The notes under the pieces: generated by a model
What the model was told of the DNA's origin: nothing
The model's database searches: none
Seen by the model: only the letters and a program-made list of their open reading frames with translations
Part shown: piece by piece, positions 22,177 through 53,383 of the stretch
How the letters are laid out: each line of letters opens with the position of its first letter
Numbering within the stretch: position 1 is the stretch's first letter
Translations under genes and position numbers: made by a program
DNA from: Candidatus Thorarchaeota archaeon
Lineage (GTDB): Archaea; Asgardarchaeota; Thorarchaeia; Thorarchaeales; Thorarchaeaceae
Direction of reading: 5' to 3'
Assembly (NCBI GenBank): GCA_016839605.1
Contig: JAEOTX010000039.1
Location: 1-64,000 of the forward strand
DNA: 64,000 nucleotides

Positions 22177-22350
22177 CTAATTCCCCGTCACAGGGCTCAT
22201 CAGGAGTTTGTTGCGCTGAATTGTCACTCCGTAAGTTTGTCCCTCATCGTCTTCAACTGAAACTGCGGCCCCTTGCAAGAATACACGGACGCGTTTTCGC
22301 AGTCTACGTCCCGGTAGATCGCGGATGTTGATGACACAGGTCTCAGCCAT
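22177..22350 (-). CDS. Small hypothetical protein, 57 aa (below ORF-track cutoff)
   Basis: MAETCVINIRDLPGRRLRKRVRVFLQGAAVSVEDDEGQTYGVTIQRNKLLMSPVTGN; GGAG SD; TATA TTATATAC at 22433-22440. Confidence 0.6.
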   Translation of the reverse strand: MAETCVINIRDLPGRRLRKRVRVFLQGAAVSVEDDEGQTYGVTIQRNKLLMSPVTGN

Positions 22351-22593
22351 TTCAGGGAACTCCGACGGATGTATGTGGTGGTCGCGGCAGCCTGATAGGG
22401 ATGCAAGACTTACTCTATTCCTAGGAATTCAAGTATATAACCGAGATTTGCGTATTCAATCCTGTAGAGATGTCCAGAACTTGAGCTAGAAGCCATTTTA
22501 AGGAGGGGTCATGAAATCTTTCCCAAATCGGGATAGAAGGTCATACAGAAGTAATACACCGCACTATGCAAACTTAACAATCGGCCAACCTAT

Positions 22594-22794
22594 TCAGGGG
22601 TCTCGTTTCAGACTCTTACCTGATGACAGAAGCTTGGCGTAGAGATTTCCATTCCTTCGAGAAATAGCTATGAACTCCGATTCAACTTCGACGACAATCT
22701 CCTCATTCTCATTAATTAGTGTATACAGGTTTTGATTGTCCATGTCCCGCAGGATTCTTTGTAGGTCTTCGGAGTAATCCTTCTCCATTTGCAT
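22594..22794 (-). CDS. Small hypothetical protein, 66 aa
   Basis: Protein-like composition; TTAATAA TATA-like element ~22862-22868. Confidence 0.6.
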   Translation of the reverse strand: MQMEKDYSEDLQRILRDMDNQNLYTLINENEEIVVEVESEFIAISRRNGNLYAKLLSSGKSLKRDP

Positions 22795-22896: not shown

Positions 22897-24375
22897 TCAC
22901 GGATTATATGCAAATGGATGTCTTGCGGATTCTTTTCGCTGAATAATCTCCTCTACAGTTTGCCGTCCCTCAAACGCTCTTCTAATTGCGAAGCGAACAG
23001 CACGGAAGTTGTTGATATGGACTCGTTTTGGATTCACTGCGTTGGGATGAACGAAAGCGTTCACAGCAATGACAAGATCGGGAATAAGCTCCTCAGGGAT
23101 TACTCCATCGGTAATCGTACGTTTAATTGCATCAGCAACCGCTCTCTGAGCGACTTCCATGACCATTTTCTTCTGCTTCTCACTCGTTATTGTCACCGTA
23201 GGTGCAAAAACTGTAAGAGGATCAAGGTCCTTGATAACATTCGATGAATGAACGCCCTCAACAATTTTTCCAGCATTATCCAATGCAGTACTGAGCGGGC
23301 CATCTCTGACGCCCATAATGAGATCGACATGTGCCACCTCCTGACCTTCACCGGCTAAGGCCTCACCATGAAGCAATGTCAGGTCTTCTACGACATCAGG
23401 AACTAAGCCAACTGCCTTTGGATAGCCTTCGGCAATTAATTCTCGATCACCCATCCTGAAAGCTACAGGTCCACGCTGTATCAATTGGAGGTCTTCAAGG
23501 CAAGTCCGAAGTTCATCGATGTCTTCATACCTCAATGAATCGCTCTCCTGTAGGGGGCGTCGAGCTGGTCCAACTGGAATACCCATCATATTCAATCCAG
23601 CCTTGATAGCTAAACCTCCCCCTCGATTGACAAAGATTCTAACTGTCTTCTGAATGCTCCGTTGAATTATCAGAGCCTCCTTGAGGTCTCCAGCAGCTAG
23701 CGCTGCCTGCATCTTGACATATCGATCTGGAAAGATGTTCGCACTGGCTAGAATTGCGCCATCGCATCCAGAAGCAAGTGCCGGGAGTGCCACCTCATCG
23801 TGTCCAACCATGACCTGAAACTCCTCTGGCTTGCGAACAAGAACTGTTGTCAGGTGCACGAGATTGCCGCTTGAATCTTTCAGACCAACGATATTCTCAA
23901 TCTCTCGTAGGCCATCGATAACCCACCAATCAAGCATGACCCCAGTTACCTGAGGGATGTTATACACGATAATGGGAATCTCAGATGAATTTGCGATCTT
24001 CTCAAAGTGCTCGTATATTTCCTTCGTCGAGGGCTTGAGGAAGTATGGTGTGACAACTAGTGCTGCAGAAGCCCCGAACTCAGCTGCTCTTCGCGTCAGC
24101 TTGATTACATCATTAGTATAGGCGGCACCAGTACCAGCTACCACTGGGACTCGTCCACCAGCAGCTTCGCAGGCTATTCTGATTGCTTCAACCTTTTCCT
24201 CGAACCGCATGCTGGTGAACTCACCTGTTGTACCGCATGGAACTAGTCCAGTAGCTCCCTTTCCGATTGTATAATCGATTAAGCCACGATACTGCTCCTC
24301 ATTGACGCCATTCTCATCGAATGGAGTGACTAGAGCAGGATATACTCCTTTGAATCGATAGGTGTGACTCGCCAT
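22897..24375 (-). CDS. DapA/NAL-family class I aldolase fused to C-terminal formaldehyde-activating enzyme (Fae) domain, copy 2
   Basis: GTTGE, YNIP, Schiff-base LKDSSG; C-terminal GEALAGEGQEVAHVDL...AFVHP...AIRRAFEG...ARHPF matches Fae. Confidence 0.88.
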   Translation of the reverse strand: MASHTYRFKGVYPALVTPFDENGVNEEQYRGLIDYTIGKGATGLVPCGTTGEFTSMRFEEKVEAIRIACEAAGGRVPVVAGTGAAYTNDVIKLTRRAAEFGASAALVVTPYFLKPSTKEIYEHFEKIANSSEIPIIVYNIPQVTGVMLDWWVIDGLREIENIVGLKDSSGNLVHLTTVLVRKPEEFQVMVGHDEVALPALASGCDGAILASANIFPDRYVKMQAALAAGDLKEALIIQRSIQKTVRIFVNRGGGLAIKAGLNMMGIPVGPARRPLQESDSLRYEDIDELRTCLEDLQLIQRGPVAFRMGDRELIAEGYPKAVGLVPDVVEDLTLLHGEALAGEGQEVAHVDLIMGVRDGPLSTALDNAGKIVEGVHSSNVIKDLDPLTVFAPTVTITSEKQKKMVMEVAQRAVADAIKRTITDGVIPEELIPDLVIAVNAFVHPNAVNPKRVHINNFRAVRFAIRRAFEGRQTVEEIIQRKESARHPFAYNP

Positions 24376-24380
24376 TTCAA

Positions 24381-25808
24381 TCAACTCCATATCTGAGATA
24401 GAGCAGCCTTTACTGCATTTTCAGCAGCGGCTCTGATTACTCTGCGTTCGCGCGTGTTCATGTCAATGTCCATAGCCATCAATACTACATCGCTCGTCAG
24501 GACTTCATCAGGGATAAGTTCCTTCTCAAGATGATCTGCTATAGCCCGGGCGGCACCAGCTTGAACGGGTCCATAAAAGAGAGAAGCTTGCCTCATGGAT
24601 TCGATTTTGCTAATAGGAAACATTAGGCTTGACGGTTTTACCGGAAGATTCGGTTCAAGAATGACTGTAAGAGCTTCCCGCCCGACCTGAGGTGTGGTCA
24701 ACAGTGTCACAAACGCTCTACCAATTGGGCCATTCTTTGAGCCCGATACCATACTCACCGAAACCTTCTCATTTGATCCTGAACCGTAACTAGTGCTTGC
24801 ATCATCTATATCCAAACCGATTTCACGGAGTACATCTTTGATTTCAATCAACTCAGGTGCAGGATGATCTAGAGATTCAATCACTCCCAGTTTCTCAAGT
24901 TCTAACCGAATTTCCTCTTTGAGTTCCAGTGTCAAAGTCCCACCTGTGTCAAGGGGAATCCTACTTCGTCCTGCTTTGATGCCAATCATCTTTAGTGCGG
25001 CTTTGACTGGCGGCCCTCCTCCATTCCTTGTAACTATCCTAGCAAGAGTCTGTGCTTCCTGTTGCAGCTGAGCTGCTCTCTCATGATCGCCAGCCTTCAC
25101 ATGCTCGATAATCTTAAGCCAGATATGTGGGATGATGTTTGCAGAGGCCATAATTGCAGCACTCGCTCCAGCGGCAATAGCTGAAAGAAAGCACTCGTCA
25201 TGTCCAATTAGGACTGGAATTATGCCCTTCAACTTCTGAATTAGTTCAACAGTATGACCAATATTCCCACCACTATCTTTGATTCCAACAACATTGTCGA
25301 GCTCGGCCAAGTCTTCTACTACGTTTGAGTTCAGGACACCTAGAGTGCATTGAGGAATATTATACAAGATTATTGGCAAATCTGCTTTTCGTGCAACTTC
25401 AGCATAATGATCATAATATCCCTTGTCTGCAGGCCTCAGGTAGTAGGGAGAAATAATCAGTGCTGCATCGCAACCAATATCAGCTGCATACTGAGTGAGT
25501 GAAACAGTTGCCCTAGTGCTATTTTGGCCAGTACCCGCGATAATGGGGACTCTTCCATCAACATACTCAACAGCAAGCTTGAGAAGCTTCTTACGCTCCT
25601 CTGTTCTCAGATATGAGAACTCCCCGGTTGTTCCAGCTGGTACGACTCCGGTCACTCCTTTTCCGATGGTAAAGTCAATTACCTGTTTGAATCCTTCTTC
25701 AAGGATGTCCCCATCCTTGGTGAATGGTGTGACCAGAGCAGGCATTACTCCTTTTGGAACGAATCTCTTGCCCAACAGTTTCACCCTTGAATAGTGCGTG
25801 GCTGGCAT
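24381..25808 (-). CDS. DapA/NAL-family class I aldolase fused to divergent Fae domain, copy 1
   Basis: GTTGE, YNIP, IKDSGG; C-terminal KNGPIGRAF...ILEPNLPVKP...QASLFYGPVQAGAARAIAD matches the Fae core. Confidence 0.86.
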   Translation of the reverse strand: MPATHYSRVKLLGKRFVPKGVMPALVTPFTKDGDILEEGFKQVIDFTIGKGVTGVVPAGTTGEFSYLRTEERKKLLKLAVEYVDGRVPIIAGTGQNSTRATVSLTQYAADIGCDAALIISPYYLRPADKGYYDHYAEVARKADLPIILYNIPQCTLGVLNSNVVEDLAELDNVVGIKDSGGNIGHTVELIQKLKGIIPVLIGHDECFLSAIAAGASAAIMASANIIPHIWLKIIEHVKAGDHERAAQLQQEAQTLARIVTRNGGGPPVKAALKMIGIKAGRSRIPLDTGGTLTLELKEEIRLELEKLGVIESLDHPAPELIEIKDVLREIGLDIDDASTSYGSGSNEKVSVSMVSGSKNGPIGRAFVTLLTTPQVGREALTVILEPNLPVKPSSLMFPISKIESMRQASLFYGPVQAGAARAIADHLEKELIPDEVLTSDVVLMAMDIDMNTRERRVIRAAAENAVKAALSQIWS

Positions 25809-26744: not shown

Positions 26745-29204
26745 CTATGCAAAATCAACCCTGCGGGCTGCATATTCCAATGATTCATTGAAATACTTGC
26801 GGATAATACGAGCAATAGCAGGGCCAACTATGTAATTGATATCACCTGGCATGAGTTTCTTCAGATTTGTCTTTCCTGTTATCTTTCCATTCCTGCGTAA
26901 AGCCCTTATCTCCCGATCTACAATTGATCTTGCTTCTGTGAGTGTCATCGGCTTGGCCGTGGACCCGATGAGACCTTGCTTAATGTCTGTGATAGACCTC
27001 ATCACAAACACAGCCAAGTTCTCAGTGTCGTTAGCAGGAATCATGTTGGTGGCTTTGTGGGTCTTGCATATGTTGTCAGACGGCGTTTCGCCACAAACTG
27101 AGCAGATCTTCCTACCTCTGCTGGTGCGGATATAGTATGACAATAGATTCGCGCATTTCGAATCGTCATTAGCGTTCCATTCAAGGCCTTTGACGCCTAC
27201 CCTTCCAATAGCTCTAAACACGGTCTGACTCTTTGTATATATCCAAGTCAGAACATCAAGTGATGCTTTCTTGCTGTCAGCTACCTTCTGCTCCTCAAGT
27301 TTGGCTTCAAGCACCAATTCCTCCTTGGCAAGCTTCTTCCGACGTTCGGTTCTCAAGAACCGATGCATGACGTCATATGCAATTGCATAGTTATCAAAGT
27401 CCAACTGGTCAGTCACGAGTTCAGTATCAATGACTCCTTCAAAGACTGGACTTGGAGTGCTATCAAGCTCAGTCTTGGCAGCGGTCATGTCTTTGTTGGA
27501 TAGCCGAGCATGCATCCACGAAGTGATGTCTGGGGCTTTCAAGTCGGGATAGACTATCTTTAGCTCGTAGATTCTCTGAGATGCCAGATCGATGAGGATT
27601 TCTTCTCGAAGGGCTTGAAGGTCGGTTTCAGGACTCTCATATATACTCTTGAGAAGTGCCTTGATACGCAAGAGGTCCTGCTTGGAACGGATATAGGTTT
27701 CAACCACGCGTGAGAGGTTTGTGAGGATTCCTGAAGTAAGATGCCATACTAGGTCAAATCGAAGTGCTGCGATTGTTTCGCCATGACGACGGTGTCGAAC
27801 TATATCGGAAGATGATGATACGCCAATAGAACTGAGCGCGCCCTGCTTGACTTTTTCTCGAGCCTCAAGTAATCGCTTGACATCTTCTGAGGAAGGAACT
27901 CGAGTCTTTTGCTTAAGTGCCTCCAGAACCTTGACCTCGAAGCCAATAAGTGAGTCGCGGTCTTTTGCCAACGTTTCAATGGTGAACTTCTCGAGTTCTG
28001 ACGCCCTGAGACCTTGCGCTTTCAGTGCACCCTTGACAGGTCGTTCCAAAATGTTTTCGAGCTTGTCTATAGCTTTGAGTGATCGCTCCAAGTAATCCAT
28101 TTCTACCTCGCTTACAGCGGGACCTGCGGTCTCTGTTTTGTCGGATTTATCTTCATCTGCAATTCGAAATCCCTTGACCAAATCAGTAGGATCTGACAAG
28201 CCCTTACGCCTTAATGCTGCGGCTATGTCGGTCGAGGGTATCTGTAGGAGATGAGAGAGTAAGTCGAATGCCCCTGCTGGATTCACTTCAATAGCTGCAG
28301 CTACCTCTTCCGACACCTTGTTGACAAGCTGTTTTTCATATTCATCCAATGTTGTAGCACCTGCCAATTGCGCCTCAACTGCAGTTAGAAAATTCAGACG
28401 TATCTCCTGAGCACGCTTAATACTAGCTAGGTGATCAGCAGGTCTGCAATATCTATTTGCCACGTCTTTTGCGATATCACCCATTGTAGCAGGATACAAC
28501 ATTGACTCCACGATGTGCGAATTAGCATACCGCGGCTCGCCCCATATTCGCTTTAGACCCTCCTTCAGAACAGTGATCTCTATAACTTCGGCATCATGCT
28601 CACGAAGAACTTCTTCTCGAAGAGACATGGAGGTTTCCTTCAATCCGGAAGCCTTGGAATAGAGGTCTTCTCTCAGCTTCACATCAAATTCCGAAAGCTG
28701 ATTGAGCAAGTCGATGTCATGATTTTGAGAGAATTCACTTGGAATCATTCCAAGATGTTCCTTGAGTAGGTCCTCTGTTCTTGCCAAGGTTTCGTCATCT
28801 GCAGGGTTTCTATTTCCAAGCTCATCACAGAAGCGAATTATAAATTGAGCGAGTATTTTTCCGACAGCAACTTCTTCGCGTTGTTTGGAACCAAGAATGT
28901 GTCGGACTTCATTCTCTAGCTGCACCCTTGTTTCCACGCCAACCTTCTCTTGATCTTCAATGCTGAGGTTCTGAGTGTCTTCAATGGTATGCAATCGAAC
29001 TCCTTGGTAACTCTGCAAATAGAATGACGCAAAGGCCGCAAAGACCTCATCTAATGGACGAGGATCAGGACTCATTTCATTGAAGATCTGTCTGGCTCTG
29101 GTGCTTCTTAGATGAGTAGCTAGAGCTTCACGAAGGATGATTTCTTTGCCAGCCTCACTCATCTGTCGTGTCTTGATAATCCACGAAGTTGACAAATCAG
29201 ACAC
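26745..29204 (-). CDS. Large alpha-helical hypothetical protein (819 aa) with C-terminal CxxC...CxxH zinc site
   Basis: Long ORF overlapping the upstream stop; CSVCG...CKTH. Confidence 0.7.
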   Translation of the reverse strand: MSDLSTSWIIKTRQMSEAGKEIILREALATHLRSTRARQIFNEMSPDPRPLDEVFAAFASFYLQSYQGVRLHTIEDTQNLSIEDQEKVGVETRVQLENEVRHILGSKQREEVAVGKILAQFIIRFCDELGNRNPADDETLARTEDLLKEHLGMIPSEFSQNHDIDLLNQLSEFDVKLREDLYSKASGLKETSMSLREEVLREHDAEVIEITVLKEGLKRIWGEPRYANSHIVESMLYPATMGDIAKDVANRYCRPADHLASIKRAQEIRLNFLTAVEAQLAGATTLDEYEKQLVNKVSEEVAAAIEVNPAGAFDLLSHLLQIPSTDIAAALRRKGLSDPTDLVKGFRIADEDKSDKTETAGPAVSEVEMDYLERSLKAIDKLENILERPVKGALKAQGLRASELEKFTIETLAKDRDSLIGFEVKVLEALKQKTRVPSSEDVKRLLEAREKVKQGALSSIGVSSSSDIVRHRRHGETIAALRFDLVWHLTSGILTNLSRVVETYIRSKQDLLRIKALLKSIYESPETDLQALREEILIDLASQRIYELKIVYPDLKAPDITSWMHARLSNKDMTAAKTELDSTPSPVFEGVIDTELVTDQLDFDNYAIAYDVMHRFLRTERRKKLAKEELVLEAKLEEQKVADSKKASLDVLTWIYTKSQTVFRAIGRVGVKGLEWNANDDSKCANLLSYYIRTSRGRKICSVCGETPSDNICKTHKATNMIPANDTENLAVFVMRSITDIKQGLIGSTAKPMTLTEARSIVDREIRALRRNGKITGKTNLKKLMPGDINYIVGPAIARIIRKYFNESLEYAARRVDFA

Positions 29205-31932
29205 CTCCTATGTTTCGGAAGTGGGTATCGCCCACAGTTACAGTCAGCTCGTTACCGACATGTTCGTATGTCACCAGATAAATAAGTTCAGGACTCTTGG
29301 GATCCCTCAGATAAGCCCTAGTGGCGCGTGGCAACAGTTTTCCTAAACTTCTAATCTCCGTGTTGCGCAAATACTCAAGAAAGCCCTCCCCAATCTCTAC
29401 TGTCAATTCGCCCGATGCTGCTGATGCTTCCGACAGCATCTGATTCAGGCTTTCTGCAAAGACTTGTTCCATCTTCTCTTGAGCCACATCCATACTATTT
29501 AGCTTCTCGGTCAGTAGGTCTCGGAGATCGATGTAGTACTGCATTTCAGGTGGCGGTACAGGCTTCTCAGGAACTGGTATCTCCTCCATTTCTGGGAATT
29601 GATTATTCACCTCAACAATTCTAACATCGAGGGATTGTGGACGCTTCGGCTCAGTGAGTGGTGGATGAGGCTCAGTAAGTACTGGAGGAGGCTCAATAGG
29701 TACTGGAGGAGACTCACCGAGTGCTGCAGGAGGCATTTCCTCAGGCAAAATCCTAGCAGCTTCCACATCTCTGCGATACTTCTCCATTTCATTATCGTAG
29801 CGGACCACATCTCTGCGATACTTCTCCATTTCGTCATCATAGCGGGCCTTCTCCTCATTGTACTGAGTTTCAGCAATGGTGATCGCCTCCGCCCGTTTCC
29901 TGTTATTTTCGCGGATGGGTTGATTCTCTGATTCAATGCGCCTGCAATTGTCTTCCCAATCCTCTACAATCAGCTGGTAGGCTTTCTCCTGCTGATTAGC
30001 CTCGAAAGTGACCTTGTCAACTATGGCCTGCGCAGTCGAACCTAATCCAACCTTGTTATGCACAAATCTAAGAAGCGCCAAGAACTTCTCTGGCACTTTC
30101 ATCTGCGGTTCTACGGTCTCGAGATATCCTCTAATCCATGTGCGGGCCTCATCTCTCCATTCATCAGGCTTTTGAGTCATGCCTTCTATAAATTCGCCAA
30201 TCTCCTTAGTTAAGTCAGCTCCTTCACTAATCACTTTGTCAATGACCCTTCTTACCAGTGTCTTTGAGAGGAGAGTATCAGCAACATTGGGAATGATATT
30301 CAGAACAAGATCCTCGAATGTTTCCAGCATTGCGAGGATAGCTTTCCCATTCTCCGAGAGTTCCTGTGAGTCAGGTCCAGCTGCATACTTGCGGGCTATC
30401 TCGGATTTGGCGATTTCAGCTACATCACTAAATCCGACAAGATCCCAGACATCAATTCGTTCAAAGGCCTCCAGCATGTCCTTGTTAATAATGGCAAGAA
30501 TTTCATCCAAGTTACGATACTCAGAGCCTTCGTAGGAAACCTTGTCGAAGATGGCGTTCATTTGGGAATGCAATTCAACATAGAATTTCTCAAAGAGCAT
30601 TCTATCTGTGGCTTCAGTAGTGGACGATTTCATCTGTTCTTGGAATCTATTCAAGGCTGACAGGAAGGCTTGTCTTGCAGCTGTGACGATTAGAAACTGA
30701 TTCAATGCATCTGAGAAATAGCGAATTGTTCGCTTCGCGTAGAGGTTGAAGTACGACACTGTGCTTCCAAGCCGCCATGCTCTAACCTCAGAAATATCAT
30801 AGAAACCACGCTGAACTGATTTCATCAGCTCTTCTGTCATTGCCCGCGCAATGGTTTTTCTGAAACCAACGAACCAATCATCATGCATTTCAATCTGAGC
30901 CAAAATCTCAGCCTTATGGTCAGGCAAAGAGAGAGTCTTTCCCGATTTTACATGTTGCTCAGCAATCTTTTCGAATGACTCTACTGATTCAGAGAGCATT
31001 GATACGAACTCGCCAAGTTCTCTCTTGAATGAGTGCAAATCACGGAGGGCAATTTCACTGCGGCCGAGAAACTTAGAGAATATTCTAGTTGTGGCAGTTG
31101 CGATATCAACTTCCTCTATGCTGTATGCGTAGATATTCAACTCGTTTAGGATTGCTCGTCCCGTTTCAGGCACCTTGACAGCAATTGCTTCGAGACCCCG
31201 CGGGGTTAATATTCTATGTTTGAAATGCTTGAGAACTGTGTCTTCGCTCTCTCGAGGCATGAAGAATTCGAGAAGAGTCCGGTCCATGACTTTGATTCCT
31301 GGCGGGAGCAATGTGAAGTCTTCTCGAAAGTTCATTGTTACTGCGACTTCTTTGTCCACATGCTCAGGTTTGAGCTGAAGAGAATCCCAAGAAGCTTGAA
31401 AGCGTCTGTCCAGCATCTCAACGAAGATAACGCGATTTAGCCGATCATTGAATCTTCTGAGCACAGGGAGACCATGTGTTTCATAGCTCATTCCGTTGCT
31501 GATAACAGCACTCTCGATATCAGACATCTTCTTGGACAACGTCTGCATATGTTCGTCAATCCTGAATGGATCAACCGCTCCTTTCTCCCAGCTGAGAATA
31601 ACAACGTGAGAACCAATCCCTTCTGAAGTTCCTCCAGCAACCACTAACTGTTCTGGAAGTACACCAGGACCCGGCGTTCGTTCCAAGTCCCATTCGAGAG
31701 AGAGAAGCTCGAGGCCCTCAGCATCCAAGAGAGCATCGCGGATAGCAAAAACAAGAGGAGCAATATTCATTGCAACTGTATCAGAATTCTCTTCCATCAT
31801 ACTACCAGAGCCCACGGCACTACCCAAAGGATATCCCAGATTCGTAGTAGTACCAAGAACAGAAGCAGAGGCCATTCTAATGGCTTCTACTGTGCTCGGA
31901 GTGTCGACTTTCTTGTCTGACCGACTCATCAT
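29197..31932 (-). CDS. Large hypothetical protein (911 aa): possible roadblock/longin-like N-terminus, helical core, coiled coil with Pro-rich hinge
   Basis: Long ORF; internal 14-aa and 7-aa repeats. Confidence 0.7.
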   Translation of the reverse strand: MMSRSDKKVDTPSTVEAIRMASASVLGTTTNLGYPLGSAVGSGSMMEENSDTVAMNIAPLVFAIRDALLDAEGLELLSLEWDLERTPGPGVLPEQLVVAGGTSEGIGSHVVILSWEKGAVDPFRIDEHMQTLSKKMSDIESAVISNGMSYETHGLPVLRRFNDRLNRVIFVEMLDRRFQASWDSLQLKPEHVDKEVAVTMNFREDFTLLPPGIKVMDRTLLEFFMPRESEDTVLKHFKHRILTPRGLEAIAVKVPETGRAILNELNIYAYSIEEVDIATATTRIFSKFLGRSEIALRDLHSFKRELGEFVSMLSESVESFEKIAEQHVKSGKTLSLPDHKAEILAQIEMHDDWFVGFRKTIARAMTEELMKSVQRGFYDISEVRAWRLGSTVSYFNLYAKRTIRYFSDALNQFLIVTAARQAFLSALNRFQEQMKSSTTEATDRMLFEKFYVELHSQMNAIFDKVSYEGSEYRNLDEILAIINKDMLEAFERIDVWDLVGFSDVAEIAKSEIARKYAAGPDSQELSENGKAILAMLETFEDLVLNIIPNVADTLLSKTLVRRVIDKVISEGADLTKEIGEFIEGMTQKPDEWRDEARTWIRGYLETVEPQMKVPEKFLALLRFVHNKVGLGSTAQAIVDKVTFEANQQEKAYQLIVEDWEDNCRRIESENQPIRENNRKRAEAITIAETQYNEEKARYDDEMEKYRRDVVRYDNEMEKYRRDVEAARILPEEMPPAALGESPPVPIEPPPVLTEPHPPLTEPKRPQSLDVRIVEVNNQFPEMEEIPVPEKPVPPPEMQYYIDLRDLLTEKLNSMDVAQEKMEQVFAESLNQMLSEASAASGELTVEIGEGFLEYLRNTEIRSLGKLLPRATRAYLRDPKSPELIYLVTYEHVGNELTVTVGDTHFRNIGGV
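29648..29846 (-). repeat. Coding tandem repeats: 4 x 21 nt (EPPPVLT-like) and 2 x 42 nt (RYDxEMEKYRRDVx)
   Basis: 21-nt units from 29648; ccacatctctgcgatacttctccatttc identical at 29763 and 29805. Confidence 0.9.
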
Positions 31933-52112: not shown

Positions 52113-52186
52113 GTTTACTACAGCCCATGCAGAAAAAGTAACACACTCAAATAAGGGTGCGCGTCTATGTAAGTGTGGGATTGTTT

Positions 52187-53383
52187 ATGATTTCTCACCT
52201 TCTCCATCTCGAATGTCCTCAATGTAGTAGAAGTCATTCAGCTGAAACTCATGCCACTTTCTGTGTATGTGGGTCACCACTCTTTGCCGTGTACGATCTA
52301 TTCAGTGTAATCGAGGACATTCAGAGGGAGCAATTTCCCACAGAAGTTAATTCCATGTGGAGATACTCACAACTTCTTCCAGTGAAGTCACCATCTTTCA
52401 TTTACAGCCTAGGAGAAGGATGGACTCCACTAACCAGCACTAGACGCCTTGGGAAGCATCTTGGCCTGAGATTCCTCAGTATCAAGGATGAGGCCCAAAA
52501 TCCAACTGGCTCTTTCAAAGACAGGGGTTTGTGTGTTGCTATATCCAAGCACCTAGAGCTGGGATCCACATCATTCGCGTTGCCCTCGGCAGGTAATGCA
52601 GCAGTTTCAACGAGTGCCTATAGTGCCGCTGGAGGAGCCGAATGTCATATCTTTATGCCATCAGATACACCTGAGCCGTTCTTCCACGATTGCATTATCT
52701 ACGGTGCTGAAACTGCTCGAGTGAATGGCAACATATCTGATTGTGGCAAAGCCATGAGAAAAGCAGAAGGTGAATGGACTGACCTGTCAACAACAAAAGA
52801 ACCCTATAGAGTTGAGGGGAAAAAAACTCTAGCTTTTGAGATTGCTGAGCAGATGGGATGGAAAGTTCCCGATGCAATAATCTGCCCCACAGGAGGAGGC
52901 ACTGCTCTAATCGGAATCTGGAAAGGCCTTGATGAGCTAGAAGCACTAGGTCTAATTGAAAGCAAAAGGCCGAGAATGTATGCAGCTCAAAGCGCGGGTT
53001 GCGCACCCATTGTGAGGGCAATCGAACAGAGAAGCGAAGAAATACAGCCCTGGCAGATTAGTGAAACAGAAGCCTTAGGATTGAGGGTTCCTAGTCCATT
53101 TGCTGGAAGACTGATTCTCGCCGCGATTCGACAATCAGGGGGTGGAGCTGTAGCTGTGGCTGAACAGGAAATTGAGCCCTGCCACAGAATGGCGGCACGT
53201 ATGGAGGGGATGGACTTCTGTCCAGAAGCTGCTGTTGGACTCGCAGGCATCCGGAATCTTGTGGAGATGGGAGAGATTGATTTTGACGAAGAGATAGTGC
53301 TCTTGAACACGGGTTCGGGAGCAAGATACTACTATGGAAATCAGAATCAGACAAAGCCAGAATCTTCTGAAAAAGAGCCATAG
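52187..53383 (+). CDS. thrC: Threonine synthase
   Basis: N-terminal Zn ribbon, SLGEGWTPL, NPTGSFKDRG, SAGNA, EGKKT, PTGGG. Confidence 0.9.
   Translation: MISHLLHLECPQCSRSHSAETHATFCVCGSPLFAVYDLFSVIEDIQREQFPTEVNSMWRYSQLLPVKSPSFIYSLGEGWTPLTSTRRLGKHLGLRFLSIKDEAQNPTGSFKDRGLCVAISKHLELGSTSFALPSAGNAAVSTSAYSAAGGAECHIFMPSDTPEPFFHDCIIYGAETARVNGNISDCGKAMRKAEGEWTDLSTTKEPYRVEGKKTLAFEIAEQMGWKVPDAIICPTGGGTALIGIWKGLDELEALGLIESKRPRMYAAQSAGCAPIVRAIEQRSEEIQPWQISETEALGLRVPSPFAGRLILAAIRQSGGGAVAVAEQEIEPCHRMAARMEGMDFCPEAAVGLAGIRNLVEMGEIDFDEEIVLLNTGSGARYYYGNQNQTKPESSEKEP

Follow-up and report, generated by a model that had tools for sequence, protein, structure and literature searches.

Tandem aldolase–Fae fusion genes in Thorarchaeota: a probable heteromeric enzyme with a divided Fae site and a candidate link to 4-hydroxy-2-oxobutanoate

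Archaeal Fae-Hps (PRK13307) is a fusion of Fae with an aldol enzyme that releases or fixes formaldehyde. The Fae of Methylorubrum extorquens is a homopentamer with its sites between identical subunits, and in the solved structure the pterin site lies between neighbouring subunits. In DmpFG/MhpEF, a 4-hydroxy-2-oxovalerate aldolase is bound to an acylating aldehyde dehydrogenase. Here we describe a pair of genes, A and B, from a Candidatus Thorarchaeota archaeon, located in a 64,000-nt stretch of DNA (positions 1 to 64,000 of contig JAEOTX010000039.1; hereafter the window). The two genes are adjacent and co-oriented on the minus strand, with A upstream of B, and each encodes a DapA-family aldolase barrel and a Fae domain. 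Like Fae-Hps, the pair joins an aldol enzyme to the Fae fold and has most of the Fae site motifs. Unlike Fae-Hps, the partner is a DapA-type Schiff-base barrel, the order is aldolase then Fae, the Fae site is divided over two genes, and the family also occurs in genomes without detectable tetrahydromethanopterin (H4MPT) enzymes. Compared with M. extorquens Fae (PDB 1Y5Y/1Y60), B aligns with an E-value of 5e-23 and keeps His22, Asp24, Gln88 and the HPF arm, but each of the A and B subunits retains one face only, with Thr at the Lys71 position. As in DmpFG/MhpEF, a pyruvate aldolase would be physically tied to an enzyme capturing its toxic aldehyde, although the folds are unrelated and the chemistry there uses acetaldehyde and CoA, whereas here it would use formaldehyde and a pterin.

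The initial annotation, made from the DNA alone, described two fusions of a DapA-family barrel with Fae, and both the open reading frame (ORF) map and hidden Markov model searches bear this out. Each protein matches the Pfam profiles for dihydrodipicolinate synthase (DHDPS; A, E 7e-77; B, E 2e-75) and Fae (A, E 1e-25; B, E 1e-32). The catalytic apparatus of a Schiff-base aldolase was likewise correctly read as intact, with GTTGE, Tyr and Lys at residues 59, 149 and 177 of A and 53, 143 and 171 of B. With the DapA/NAL superfamily (NanA, YagE, HpaI-type, KdgD) the pair shares the fold, the GxTGE motif, Tyr133 and the Schiff-base Lys161. A and B differ from that superfamily in lacking Arg138, in carrying GHDE, in forming their own clade, in the C-terminal Fae domain and, in most carriers, in having no DapB partner. 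The domains, motif losses, distribution and gene linkage reported here come from the sequences and comparative data.

Automatic pipelines would call both genes dapA, as the initial annotation had anticipated. A (228 bits) and B (230 bits) pass the NCBIfam dapA cut-off (TIGR00674, 206), the top matches in a PDB sequence search are DHDPS at about 35% identity, and relatives from Thorarchaeota are named 4-hydroxy-tetrahydrodipicolinate synthase by NCBI and JGI. These similarities would suit an ordinary lysine-pathway DHDPS with an incidental Fae fusion. However, Arg138, already noted as missing from this pair (Cys154 in A, Val148 in B), is present in none of the 207 barrels compared, while GTTGE or GSTGE is kept in 207/207 and the Schiff-base Lys in 205/207. 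In A and B the G186-D187-D188 motif of DHDPS is also replaced, by GHD followed by Glu (GHDE). We searched 12 Thorarchaeia, 10 of which were more than 94% complete, and nine other non-Loki Asgards of fusion-bearing families (f12, f13 and f27), and found dapB in none of them; among fusion-carrying Asgards it was found only in Lokiarchaeia. In a quick tree for which the fusions contributed their barrels only (Fae part excluded), they formed one clade apart from Arg-bearing DapA, with a Shimodaira-Hasegawa-like approximate likelihood ratio test (SH-aLRT) value of 99. Ordinary DHDPS function is therefore scarcely credible. Both proteins also score far below the cut-offs for NanA, KdgD, HpaI and archaeal 2-keto-3-deoxygluconate (KDG) aldolase. 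Against the Fae-Hps profile NF009833 (cut-off 274) the pair reaches only 77 and 97 bits, the fused partner being DHDPS-like rather than Hps. Literature searches turned up no paper describing a DapA-Fae fusion. Taken together, we conclude that A and B, although designed like Fae-Hps, are neither DHDPS nor Fae-Hps, and that the enzyme family they represent is real and conserved, is mis-annotated and has apparently not been described before. The genome has a third DapA-family gene on another contig (C141; L005:1465-2454), which is nearest to KdgD yet falls under the KdgD cut-off.

The Fae domains of A and B differ, a point absent from the initial annotation. B passes the Fae cut-off of TIGR03126 (122.8 bits against 118.05), and A falls below it (86.7 bits). 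The complete set of Fae motifs (His22/Asp24, PN loop, GPAQ and C-terminal arm) is in neither chain by itself, and A and B combined have it. We compared 52 distinct pairs and found that upstream copies had lost the His22/Asp24 motif (AH.D), FVHP and the C-terminal arm (each 0/52) and had kept the EPN loop (51/52) and GPxQ (49/52). Downstream copies showed the reciprocal pattern, with His22/Asp24 in 52/52, FVHP in 51/52, the arm in 52/52 and the EPN loop in 0/52; B of this genome also lacks the GP of GPAQ. In undivided single-gene fusions, including those of Loki-, Bathy- and Atabeyarchaeia, every Fae motif was kept in 87-91 of 93 sequences.

A predicted complex of the B and A Fae domains scored 0.72, compared with 0.00 for the best control, and passed a mark reached by 58 of 80 solved pairs and 2 of 110 mismatched pairs. 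Contacts agreed between runs at 80% or more and the partner pLDDT was at least 77. In the model, the GEAL N-terminal strand, Asp356 and C-terminal arm of B contact loop 383-391 of A. The pass may stem from likeness to the solved Fae pentamer; the informative part of the prediction is the choice between two possible faces. Our assignment of motifs to subunit faces follows the known Fae structure and this model. The reciprocal motif loss and the predicted interface together suggest one composite Fae site per A/B interface. We conclude that A and B very probably form a heteromer with a split Fae site. They would be two subunits of a single enzyme derived from one ancient DapA-Fae duplication, each retaining the opposite face of the inter-subunit site, such that one A/B interface makes one working site. 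The fusions described in the initial annotation are real, but the motif losses in the 52 pairs point to subunits sharing a composite site rather than to two independent enzymes. At the Tyr107 position of the inter-subunit aldolase triad, thorarchaeial B has Phe (window 24033-24041 region) and A has Tyr, which suggests that within an A/B dimer only the aldolase site of B would have a full triad. Coordinates are collected in the table.

Table. Features of the A/B gene pair (window positions)
Feature	Positions	Strand	Description
Gene A, upstream subunit	24381-25808	minus	475 aa; DapA-family aldolase + partial Fae domain
A aldolase barrel, residues 19-287	24948-25754	minus	GTTGE, Tyr149, Lys177, Cys at Arg138 position, GHDE
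A Fae half-site, residues 346-471	24396-24773	minus	has EPNL loop (385) and GPVQ (413); lacks His22/Asp24, FVHP and C-terminal arm
Gene B, downstream subunit	22897-24390	minus	497 aa; DapA-family aldolase + partial Fae domain
B aldolase barrel, residues 13-287	23530-24354	minus	GTTGE, Tyr143, Lys171, GHDE; Val at Arg138 position, Phe at Tyr107 position
B Fae half-site, residues 342-493	22912-23367	minus	has His354/Asp356, Gln, FVHP (446), INNF (459) and ARHPF arm (489); lacks EPN loop

Judged by RBS-like (ribosome-binding-site-like) motifs and ortholog lengths, the probable start of A is a TTG at 25775 and that of B an ATG at 24375, 5 nt past the A stop.

We found the A-B tandem in 16 of 16 Thorarchaeia genera searched. 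Other Asgards carry canonical Fae-Hps together with one undivided DapA-Fae fusion of about 495 aa, and the fusion is common in Bathyarchaeia and also occurs in Anaerolineae and Thermoplasmata. In the barrel tree, the A clade (SH-aLRT 98) and the B clade (96), with one long-branch exception, each span Thor-, Baldr- and Bathyarchaeia, Thermoplasmata and Anaerolineae. Because both clades cross phyla, this quick tree suggests a single old duplication. Retention of the aldolase motifs also bears on whether the system serves mainly to capture formaldehyde at the composite Fae site, with the barrels mostly a scaffold or regulator. A and B contain the only Fae domains found in this genome (80% complete), in which no Hps was found, and one Thermoplasmata pair combines dead barrels with intact Fae motifs, both of which would fit such a role. 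On the other hand, the GTTGE/GSTGE motif and Schiff-base Lys are nearly invariant across the 207 barrels, and Loki, Atabey and other genomes retain the fusion alongside canonical Fae-Hps; we consider a scaffold role for the barrels improbable. In the A/B pair of GCA_003560875 (L320:5544-8449), both barrels have lost GTTGE and the Schiff-base Lys, the Fae motifs are kept, and a RibD_C gene lies upstream.

The initial annotation did not include a third conserved gene that we conclude belongs to the aldolase-Fae system. One of two proteins, X (~428 aa) or Y (~315 aa), but never both, is encoded beside the fusion at about 98 of the 102 related loci. X is present in 70 of 76 Thorarchaeia; in this genome it encodes 427 aa on a different contig from the pair (C185; L170:1909-3192). 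X and Y are remote homologs of each other (hhalign E 5e-4), with no match in Pfam, NCBIfam or PDB sequence searches. Their predicted fold is a generic TIM barrel for which fold searches rank class II aldolases top without separating them from other barrels. In the Atlas, structure matches were to clusters that are hypothetical or labelled U32, and a feature search gave nothing informative. Elsewhere, X or Y adjoins the gene of a free DapA-type protein or of a 4-hydroxy-2-oxovalerate aldolase, and a Y homolog is found with DmpFG/MhpEF-type genes on a Mycobacterium plasmid. Two free DapA relatives (P0255 and P0257) gave no useful gene context. Distant bacterial Y homologs sit in sugar-acid catabolic clusters, with neighbours including IlvD-, UxaA- and enolase-type dehydratases, KDG kinase, Eda and semialdehyde dehydrogenases. 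Around X, an energy-coupling factor (ECF) S-component gene precedes the copy in this genome and all 14 thorarchaeial copies fetched, and a transketolase is nearby in 5 of the 14. In seven Anaerolineae loci a transaldolase/FSA gene precedes Y, and a tetrose or 4-phosphoerythronate is a possible source of 4-hydroxy-2-oxobutanoate (HOB). A third, diverged X/Y subtype (L166:5366-6613), about 24% identical to X, lies upstream of the pair in some Anaerolineae.

The contexts of X bear on the substrate of the aldolase. Fae is absent from two Asgard families, f5 and f22 (0/28 and 0/21 genomes), in which X is common (21/28 and 19/21) and Asd is mostly missing. At 15 X loci from these families (L329-L343), X is followed by a class I aminotransferase gene in 15/15, homoserine dehydrogenase (Hom) in 11/15 and a tungsten-type aldehyde:ferredoxin oxidoreductase (AOR) in 10/15. 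Since X pairs either with aldolase and Fae or with aminotransferase, Hom and AOR, HOB emerges as the compound on which both sets can act: its retro-aldol cleavage would yield pyruvate and formaldehyde, and its transamination homoserine. The X-aminotransferase-Hom-AOR operon thus supports, independently and through gene context, HOB as the substrate. The A and B barrels would be class I pyruvate aldolases interconverting HOB with pyruvate and formaldehyde, and the Fae site would condense the released formaldehyde with a tetrahydropterin carrier. The net reaction would be HOB + pterin = pyruvate + methylene-pterin + water, a reversible hydroxymethyl transfer; descriptions of this interconversion have until now been confined to engineered pathways. 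X/Y would catalyse a step adjoining HOB in this pathway; the simplest role would be that of the HOB-making enzyme, for example as a tetronate dehydratase or an enzyme of C4 elimination or addition. On balance we consider it probable that A and B carry out HOB chemistry with a pterin carrier; the substrate, the carrier, the role of X and the direction are read from context, and the interface is predicted. The initial annotation had proposed a pyruvate-type aldolase acting on HOB or a similar compound and tied to Fae; the Schiff-base motifs, the Fae fusion and the X operon favour that part, but its picture of two enzymes gives way to a shared site.

The barrel could instead cleave a larger C5/C6 sugar acid of the 2-keto-3-deoxy type, or a 4-hydroxy-2-oxo acid other than HOB, with X/Y as a dehydratase or C4 epimerase and Fae handling another aldehyde or scavenging formaldehyde. 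The GHDE motif resembles those of NanA and YagE, a UxaA pair faces one Bathyarchaeia fusion, and the catabolic neighbours of bacterial Y point the same way. However, this substrate would leave the X-aminotransferase-Hom-AOR operon unexplained, IlvD and UxaA dehydratases were not found in this genome, and A and B, as noted, miss the cut-offs of the sugar-acid aldolases by a wide margin. We consider it unlikely. An aldol reaction of formaldehyde with a 2-oxo acid has precedent (EC 4.1.2.12), which would accommodate a ketopantoate aldolase that, with Fae, substitutes for PanB in CoA synthesis using an H4MPT-derived C1 unit. We rejected a replacement of PanB because this genome has a full-score panB that covers ketopantoate synthesis; no CoA genes recur near fusion loci either, and the idea is highly improbable.

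Published work treats HOB as a non-native compound, obtained with promiscuous aldolases, transaminases or threonate dehydratase (PMC8879981, PMC13279387). The synthetic homoserine cycle uses promiscuous RhmA as HOB aldolase together with a HOB aminotransferase (He et al. 2020, as summarized in PMC8879981). It has in common with our proposal the reaction of pyruvate and formaldehyde to HOB and the transamination link to homoserine. There, however, the aldolase is class II and formaldehyde is free, whereas the enzyme proposed here is of class I, dedicated to the reaction and fused to a site for loading the pterin.

The identity of the C1 carrier appears to vary with the host. This genome encodes mch, ftr and mtd, as expected if H4MPT is the acceptor as first proposed, and also fhs; RFAP synthase had no match in this 80%-complete assembly. 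H4MPT is nevertheless not required: 63 of 251 Anaerolineae genomes carry the pair, and mch was detected in only 9 of these 63 (54/63 none seen). We therefore rejected strict dependence on H4MPT. Acetyl-CoA synthase is present in 57 of the 63 Anaerolineae with the pair and in 78 of the 188 without it, counts that include kin and so are not independent. One closed Thermoplasmata chromosome with the pair has fhs, with no mch, ftr or mtd seen. We conclude that the fusion is linked to Wood-Ljungdahl C1 metabolism and not strictly to H4MPT. The carrier would be H4MPT in this genome, and tetrahydrofolate is the likely carrier in the Anaerolineae and this Thermoplasmata host.

The net reaction resembles those of serine or ketopantoate hydroxymethyltransferase and is expected to be reversible. 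We lean slightly towards net cleavage, feeding pyruvate and C1 units to the Wood-Ljungdahl pathway, on account of the AOR gene found with X and the catabolic clusters in which Y homologs lie. The scarcity of Asd in the Fae-less X families and the association of X/Y with free DapA-type and 4-hydroxy-2-oxovalerate aldolases also favour cleavage, as does our failure to find aspartokinase, Asd, Hom or homoserine kinase in this genome (80% complete). Run the other way, the same enzyme would convert methylene-pterin and pyruvate through HOB to homoserine and on to threonine or methionine, replacing aspartokinase, Asd and Hom, with X consuming HOB or a derivative. Consistent with this, Hom is rare where the fusion is typical (3/109 genomes: Thorarchaeia 3/76, f12 0/19, f13 0/3, f27 0/11), and in Lokiarchaeia it occurs in 18 of 23 genomes without X compared with 17 of 45 with X. 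In addition, 7 of the 14 thorarchaeial X loci have a ThrC-like gene in divergent orientation to X, such a gene also follows a Fae-less close barrel, and near-universal retention in single copy suggests housekeeping. Nevertheless, ThrB (TIGR00191) and the TIGR02535-type kinase were both below cut-off in 37 of 38 X/fusion genomes (ThrH/HAD-type kinases were outside this search), whereas all six X-less control genomes had one or the other homoserine kinase; these counts make a straightforward path to threonine less likely. This genome, like half of the thorarchaeial loci, also lacks the ThrC-like gene beside X, and at least eight Lokiarchaeia carry the fusion and Hom together. Within the HOB reading, we regard net biosynthesis as slightly less likely than net cleavage. 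The window itself contains a threonine synthase-like gene of PRK08197 type (52157-53383; 482 vs 303 bits), in a genome where neither Hom nor a homoserine kinase was detected. The distribution of the fusion and X is thus complementary to that of the canonical homoserine pathway as a whole, as would suit either a novel route of biosynthesis or hosts that live on peptides, have given up biosynthesis and get rid of HOB.

The neighbours of the pair in the window (M20 deacylase, AlaX, CutA and a membrane protein) do not recur beside it outside Thorarchaeia, and we discounted them, reading the arrangement as synteny. The ArgE/DapE-like gene was likewise discounted as a sign of a diaminopimelate pathway because dapB is missing. 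Upstream of the pair, two large ORFs (819 and 911 aa; 26745-31932) overlap by 8 nt and have no Pfam match; their synteny is kept in another thorarchaeial genome (L375). A 900-nt gap after gene B holds two short minus-strand ORFs of 57 and 66 aa (22177-22794).

The pair offers a clean example of an oligomeric active site divided between duplicated genes, and X/Y, a conserved enzyme family without an assigned function, gains a testable role. Should the enzyme act on HOB, it would be the first natural aldolase dedicated to this compound, and it would bring its own site for loading the C1 carrier; for this aldol reaction, synthetic methylotrophy at present relies on slow enzymes with promiscuous activity. 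The family is spread through very abundant sediment microbes (Thorarchaeia, Lokiarchaeia, Bathyarchaeia and Anaerolineae). Genome papers count its members as dapA or plain fae, which would give a wrong picture of lysine synthesis and of formaldehyde detoxification alike; fae of Bathyarchaeia has been interpreted as detoxification (PMC10321748). We tentatively suggest that HOB may be a natural hub metabolite of Asgards, Bathyarchaeia and acetogenic Anaerolineae. An aldolase/split-Fae pyruvate hydroxymethyltransferase would connect HOB, through one or the other pterin carrier, with the methyl branch of the Wood-Ljungdahl pathway. X/Y would constitute a novel family of enzymes and, in concert with an aminotransferase, spare the cell the aspartokinase-Asd-Hom-kinase route. 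If so, these organisms would hold a natural counterpart of the engineered homoserine cycle.

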